Below are positions 34,583 to 35,237 of a stretch of 64,000 bases of DNA, in pieces; position 1 is the stretch's first letter, and each line of letters opens with the position of its first letter. The position numbers and the translations under genes were made by a program. Origin of the DNA: Somniosus microcephalus (taxonomy: Eukaryota); NCBI GenBank assembly GCA_052327205.1, contig CM126210.1:98084001-98148000 (forward strand), read 5' to 3'. The notes below the pieces were generated by a model that was not told the DNA's origin, did not search any database, and saw nothing but the letters and a program-made list of their open reading frames with translations.

Positions 34583-34792
34583 CTATCCACATATTGCAGC
34601 TTTTTTGAGTTCTGGGTTGTCCCTGGGGTGGTGGGTGAGGCTGTGGCGCCTCAGGTCACAGTTCCTCCGGAAAACCTTCGCACACTGACGGCAGTTGTAT
34701 GGTTTTATGTCAGTGTGAGTAAGGAGATGGGTTTTCAGGTTGCTTCTCTGATTAAACATTCTGCCACACGTCGGGCAGTTGTGCGGAGATTC
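34583..34792 (-). CDS. OSR1: OSR1 terminal exon encoding C2H2 zinc fingers 4 and 5 (5-finger isoform)
   Basis: Acceptor cttctgtgtttaacag|GAA; 210 nt open: ESPHNCPTCGRMFNQRSNLKTHLLTHTDIKPYNCRQCAKVFRRNCDLRRHSLTHHPRDNPELKKAAICG*; phase 0 matches the donor after 35138. Confidence 0.9.
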   Translation of the reverse strand, partial: ESPHNCPTCGRMFNQRSNLKTHLLTHTDIKPYNCRQCAKVFRRNCDLRRHSLTHHPRDNPELKKAAICG

Positions 34793-35101
34793 CTGTTAAA
34801 CACAGAAGACAAAGCATCACCTTCCAACTCCAAGTTCACGGCGGAGGACATCATGAAGGGCGACACAGTTCAACCGCCCTCGTTTCAAGGGAGGATCTAC
34901 TGAAACAAGGGTTTTTAGAAAACGACACAGGTCTTCCCATAGTAGAATCCCACAGATAATCTGTTTGTATTGGAATAAAGTAACAGAAGAGAACAGCAGC
35001 AGAATGGATATAGTCTATGCTGTTTCTAAATTTGACAGATATGTCCGCGTTATAGGCTTTCATCAACGTTGCATTCTGAGTGCTGTTTGCAGGTTCTATG
35101 C

Positions 35102-35237
35102 TCAGCACTTTATCTTAGAGGTTTTGAGCTCTTTTACCTGCACGTGCAGTGTTTTGTGAACAGCTAATGTTCTGGACTGGCAAAATCCTTTACCGCATTC
35201 TTGACATTTGAAGGGTTTTTCCTTGGAATGAATGTAC
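35102..35237 (-). CDS. OSR1: OSR1 exon encoding zinc finger 3 and the 3-finger C-terminus
   Basis: Acceptor ttttgctttaatttag|G; translates (R)[44 protein letters not shown]; internal donor CAG|GTAAAA after 35138. Confidence 0.95.

Follow-up and report, generated by a model that had tools for sequence, protein, structure and literature searches.

A patterning gene of kidney, heart and limb connective tissue, OSR1 is regarded as having a fixed set of three fingers; in its paralogue OSR2, the alternative splice sites around exon 4 are acceptors. Three fingers are given for human, mouse and zebrafish OSR1 in the consulted part of PMC9687957 and five for Drosophila Bowl in that of PMC11368183, and the consulted part of PMC3042965 describes five- and three-finger variants of Xenopus osr2 that arise in a ratio of about 1:3 via alternative splice sites around exon 4.

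The OSR1 gene analysed here lies in a stretch of 64,000 nucleotides from Somniosus microcephalus, which as a whole is referred to as the window. It resembles the OSR2A/OSR2B system, as far as the same part of PMC3042965 describes it, in that five- and three-finger products of one gene, with near-identical fingers 4 and 5, would depend on a choice at the intron following finger 3. However, it is the paralogous gene, and whereas OSR2 picks between splice sites, the short form of the window gene results from no splicing at all. With bony-vertebrate OSR1 it shares orthology, as judged by a gene tree, and the same read-through tail, which was present in 139 of 146 non-chondrichthyan OSR1 proteins with finger 3; in contrast, the two fingers of exon 4 were found in none of these 146 vertebrate-type proteins among those fetched (34 rows without finger 3 and three mis-binned invertebrate proteins, P0204, P0218 and P0247, which had been binned as OSR1 by score, were dropped before counting). 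Chondrichthyan models such as Callorhinchus XP_007898597.1, Heterodontus XP_067873832.1 (317 aa, 98% identical to the five-finger form of the window) and Cetorhinus XP_078397640.1 yield a five-finger product by the same junction. These are automatic predictions, and a paper on five-finger OSR1 was not found in literature searches judged by titles and abstract openings, with most subscription papers and all supplements outside their scope. Five fingers are likewise present in Drosophila Bowl, insect sob and the odd-skipped proteins of amphioxus, hemichordate, lamprey and hagfish, but the OSR1-type read-through tail was absent from these in the rows examined.

Both open reading frames of OSR1 were rebuilt by script from the window, in which the gene occupies the minus strand with the following features:

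43159 to 43273, minus strand: upstream coding exon (exon 1) with an in-frame ATG, located by tblastn with shark OSR1 N-termini, donor and acceptor read
35682 to 36378, minus strand: exon 2, encoding the N-terminal region, finger 1 and most of finger 2, with the MGSK start ATG at 36325; 98% identity to named shark OSR1 over residues 1-165
35238 to 35681, minus strand: intron 2, 444 nt, removed in transcripts (joint in 4/4 runs, loose ends into exon 2 in 3/3 further RNA-like runs)
35138 to 35237, minus strand: exon 3, 100 nt, encoding the end of finger 2 and finger 3 and ending at the internal donor CAG/GTAAAA; exon length and donor position both match the OSR2 paralogue
34793 to 35137, minus strand: optional intron 3, 345 nt, GT-AG, kept as tail and 3' UTR in 7/7 transcript assemblies
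35102 to 35137, minus strand: read-through tail of the three-finger form, 11 aa and stop, equal to the first 36 nt of the optional intron (script rebuild)
34583 to 34792, minus strand: exon 4, 210 nt including the stop, encoding fingers 4 and 5 and a 15-aa end; homologous to OSR2 and covered by transcript contigs
34000 to 34005, minus strand: likely poly(A) signal AATAAA common to both forms, with contig ends at 33999-34047 in 3/4 runs

Left unspliced at 35138, the frame reaches a stop ending at 35102 and encodes 259 aa with three C2H2 fingers. Splicing from 35138 to 34792 is in frame and stop-free up to the end of exon 4, affording 317 aa with five fingers. The script thus reproduced every coordinate and length of the initial annotation, namely the donor after 35138, the 345-nt intron, the 210-nt exon, both protein lengths and the two added fingers. 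Preceded by GT-AG sites, the terminal exon 4 continues the frame with two complete C2H2 fingers, at a position homologous to the OSR2A-type exon; all eight zinc ligands are intact, Pfam zf-C2H2 matches its peptide with 41.2 bits (cut-off 25.2), and the intron 3 acceptor has a pyrimidine fraction of 0.70 over positions -23 to -4. At the other end of the gene, loose ends of transcript contigs at 36380 ran on into the 43159-43273 exon in 4/4 runs, and by hand count this exon could add 56 aa ahead of the MGSK start in both forms. Similar N-terminal extensions occur in OSR1 models of ray, chimaera, paddlefish, bichir and lungfish. OSR1 entries of 310-316 aa from rays, chimaera, paddlefish and bichir, considered as five-finger forms by their length, were rejected as N-extended three-finger proteins.

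Transcript contig assemblies were compared for 8 of 23 listed runs, seven of them spliced and RNA-like and one (X21) DNA-like. The seven, from six organisms and six studies, are among 17 RNA-like runs listed; their run type is not on record as RNA and they were taken as spliced mRNA since intron 2 is skipped, and none is labelled with the organism of the best DNA matches. Donor and acceptor of intron 3 were both bridged unspliced in all seven, including runs at depths of 96 and 130, and the 35138-to-34792 joint was found in 0/7, where contigs drop rare forms. In the assemblies seen, exon 4 is therefore present in RNA as part of the 3' UTR that follows the three-finger reading frame. This uniform read-through shows the dominance of the three-finger form in those assemblies, not the absence of a five-finger form. 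The initial annotation had described a working switch between three and five fingers and had proposed to look for the junction in RNA; in the transcript assemblies this search did not bear the switch out. A contig break of run X4 at 34738-34760 with a step in depth was also considered as a junction trace and rejected, since a true junction would break the graph near 34795/34766.

Chondrichthyan OSR1 entries provided a second view of the donor, two of the clusters used being listed with 15 of 21 and 15 of 16 members. Of the 37 listed entries that include finger 3, 22 carry the read-through tail, nine models from seven cartilaginous-fish species are intact five-finger proteins, two are damaged five-finger models, and four leave the same donor for other ends. 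The exon that the initial annotation had called hidden has therefore already been modelled in seven cartilaginous fishes. The end of a whale-shark OSR1 model matches a second acceptor at window position 34960 in 11 of 14 aa, and a Heptranchias model stopping just past the donor would fit an acceptor at 34899. For the Heptranchias X2 end no placement was found in the window, and a Hemiscyllium alternative end assigned to 33563 (8 of 14 aa matching) was rejected because no AG is present there. By usual annotation practice, database models with such alternative ends rest on RNA junctions. As protein homology alone would not produce these ends, shark RNA is probably spliced at this donor; some of the five-finger models may nevertheless have been projected from OSR2 proteins.

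A stronger claim is that the five-finger form represents the main OSR1 product in a tissue or embryonic stage beyond those in the assemblies compared. The five-finger entry of Pristiophorus carries no isoform number, the chimaera lists its five-finger model first, the assemblies come from runs of unstated tissue, and Xenopus osr2 makes both variants in the ratio quoted above from part of PMC3042965. However, seven assemblies from six studies all read through, and we regard this possibility as improbable.

A gene tree of 35 rows placed the window gene in an 18-row OSR1 clade (support 99/100) and the only other close gene of the genome, on contig C7 with 66% identity, in a nine-row OSR2 clade (support 99/99). 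Over the N-terminal 165 aa, identity is 96-98% with the named OSR1 proteins of sharks and rays and about 54% with OSR2 from sharks, and the window gene carries the short basic tail after three fingers, as in OSR1. On its contig C9, the WDR35 family lies at 92.5 Mb (5/5 matches), 5.6 Mb from OSR1 at 98.1 Mb, and 11 of 19 matches to the NT5C1 family at 95.4-95.7 Mb, 2.4 Mb from OSR1, with the remainder on C15 and C20 and none on C7. WDR35 and NT5C1B are neighbours of human OSR1; the order of the three on C9 is unlike the human one. The NT5C1-family matches at 95.41-95.73 Mb form a cluster of several copies, some with an internal stop. Judged by tree, tail and linkage, the window gene is OSR1 and not OSR2, as the initial annotation had it, and its suggested control by tree and synteny yielded no OSR2 placement.

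In the OSR2 gene on C7, exon 3 also measures 100 nt and its donor sits at the same codon; an intron of 409 nt separates it from a matching exon 4, whose peptide is 91% identical to that of the window over 58 aa (4 of 54 finger residues changed). With a match of this extent behind an equally placed donor, exon 4 is not a chance feature. The same resemblance could be read as a sign that the gene is OSR2, that exon 4 was gene-converted from OSR2 or that the assembly is chimeric, but the two genes fall into separate, well-supported clades and the DNA of exon 4 is just 76% identical to OSR2, with 31 silent and 9 replacement differences over 55 codons (pS 0.88, saturated; pN 0.069). Fingers 1-3 present a comparable picture (pS 1.0, pN 0.018, 78% DNA identity). 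Moreover, two exon-4 residues are common to chimaera and shark OSR1 and different in OSR2, and single contigs span exon 3 to exon 4 in other species. We thus consider any of these three explanations hardly credible, an OSR2 identity or recent copying being refuted by tree topology and silent-site divergence, and the saturated silent sites, comparable to those of fingers 1-3, indicate that exon 4 was inherited from the OSR1/OSR2 duplication rather than copied lately.

A protein search with the exon-4 peptide returned, among the best 120 of 829 matches, shark OSR1 at the top, followed by OSR2 proteins and odd-skipped proteins of lamprey, hagfish, amphioxus, hemichordate and arthropods, and all odd-skipped relatives from this search that were placed in the tree are five-fingered. 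Fingers 4 and 5 as in exon 4 are carried by cyclostome, amphioxus, hemichordate and insect sob proteins; in the cyclostome and invertebrate rows compared, they differ from OSR2 in 0-5 of 54 residues, and the DNA-contacting helix residues of the window, read by eye, are identical to those of OSR2 and insect sob. An ancestral five-finger state, older than the OSR1/OSR2 duplication as initially proposed, follows from these proteins and is unsurprising.

Sequence comparisons indicate that exon 4 has been under purifying selection at the protein level over the long term. The split between chimaera and sharks dates back about 400 million years, and fingers 4 and 5 of the window show two differences in 54 residues relative to chimaera OSR1 and one relative to horn shark. 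Simulated neutral evolution (n=2000) at assumed distances left at most two changes and no stop in 0.05% of cases at 0.1 substitutions per site and so few changes without a stop in 5.8% at 0.05. Ten exon-4 differences are listed for run X13, which comes from another species, and seven of them are silent, compared with 21% expected (P=0.001; P=0.08 in the worst case that all nine unlisted of 43 differences are amino-acid changes in exon 4). Its 13 gap letters correspond to four indels, all of which lie in the intron and none in exon 4, and among the differences listed none falls in the 40 nt preceding the acceptor. By these measures, exon 4 is both old and protein-constrained.

Other observations point away from a maintained isoform. 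Listed DNA-level changes of X13 number 15 in the 345-nt intron and 10 in the 210-nt exon, and conservation of the UTR around them is also about 95%, so that an intron roughly as conserved as the exon is as expected of a constrained UTR. Across nine chondrichthyan rows, fingers 1-3 have no change in 82 aa, compared with 0-16 in 54 for fingers 4 and 5: sawshark and basking shark have four, carpet sharks 9-11 and the catshark Scyliorhinus canicula, in whose damaged exon 4 cysteines are lost, 16. The model of the electric ray Narcine is truncated by a stop after 14 residues of its exon-4 part, the window has changes of its own at exon-4 codons 5 and 55, and its close relatives (runs X1, X2 and X4) carry a Thr-to-Ile replacement at codon 53 (window position 34635), between the two histidines of finger 5. 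Breaks in related species, which the initial annotation had named as evidence against its proposal, are accordingly seen in catshark and electric ray but not in the nearest relatives. Its statement that five fingers are kept under selection here holds as protein constraint over the long term.

These data could be accommodated by an exon 4 that was constrained until recently and is no longer translated in this lineage, surviving through slow shark evolution and 3' UTR constraint, with noisy splicing at most and a donor preserved by the codons of the tail. Independent decay in catshark and electric ray, the carpet-shark and lineage-specific replacements, the conserved intron, the lack of the joint in all seven assemblies and database models that send the donor to several unrelated ends would all fit such a remnant. 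However, X13 exhibits silent bias without an indel in exon 4, the peptide is nearly identical to those of chimaera and horn shark, and every zinc ligand is retained. We therefore judge a mere remnant to be unlikely and consider it probable that exon 4, kept intact in the 3' UTR of the three-finger mRNA, is spliced in at a low level to give a minor maintained five-finger isoform.

For this minor isoform, the donor itself suggests a mechanism. The Val codon that opens the short tail contains its GT, so that the same bases can act as a splice donor or be translated on read-through, and its +5 position is A in OSR1 and G in the OSR2 paralogue. When intron 3 is retained, translation stops 36 nt on, which gives three fingers. 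The Lys codon of the tail may fix the A at +5 and thereby weaken the donor, making retention the default and splicing the exception, and occasional use of the donor would join exon 4 in frame to give five fingers. Since the stop codon of either form would fall within the final exon, neither should trigger nonsense-mediated decay. The long form is predicted to keep the N-terminal repressor region, which presumably holds an eh1-like Groucho motif, and to read a longer DNA site; with two added fingers whose contact residues are identical to those of OSR2, it would behave like OSR2A.

Historically, a five-finger ancestor would have been duplicated, and OSR1 would have gained its three-finger form by reading into intron 3, its familiar tail being likely a read-through of an ancestral intron. 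Exon 4 would then have stayed constrained in chimaera, horn shark and the present lineage, relaxed or broken in several other sharks and rays, and been lost in bony vertebrates, which by the protein comparison appear to have lost the five-finger form. The best reading is thus that some cartilaginous-fish lineages keep a minor five-finger isoform while it decays in others. More tentatively, and as a possibility on which we would not yet rely, cartilaginous fishes may preserve a transitional state on the way to three-finger OSR1, in which a developmentally regulated, dual-coding donor yields five- and three-finger repressors with different target sites. On this view, bony vertebrates, catshark and electric ray would each have lost the long form independently, and OSR2 would have arrived at three fingers through a different splicing path at this intron.

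An intact exon 4 in sharks and chimaera dates the difference between three-finger OSR1 and five-finger OSR2 to after the duplication, and the conserved tail as a likely former intron offers a plausible route to three fingers. Together they provide a small, testable case of a paralogue that sheds DNA-binding fingers stepwise, with intact, relaxed and broken states all living. The impact is limited, as five-finger protein models are already in databases and as mouse Osr1 and Osr2 have been reported to be functionally equivalent (Gao 2009, as cited in the consulted part of 10.1101/255851), which suggests that fingers 4 and 5 matter little. The feature is real and already part of automatic annotation, its evolutionary interpretation was not found in print, and the splice and any regulation are putative.

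Several minor observations concern the surroundings of this intron. Further acceptors within the optional intron, at 34960 and 34899 on the minus strand, are those that fit the whale-shark and Heptranchias model ends. Read-through at the intron 3 donor of the OSR2 paralogue (L007:5649-5705) would give three fingers and an 18-aa tail unrelated to that of OSR1. Passerine-bird OSR1 isoform X2 models (P0318, P0319) exit at a donor homologous to 35138 towards another short end, and the donor may stay usable in birds. Among the related organisms compared, conservation of the whole OSR1 3' UTR (window 34000-35100, minus strand) amounts to about 92-97%, which suggests regulatory elements, and two contigs of run X2 at window positions 36899-37600, inside intron 1, possibly correspond to an alternative first exon, pre-mRNA or an antisense transcript.
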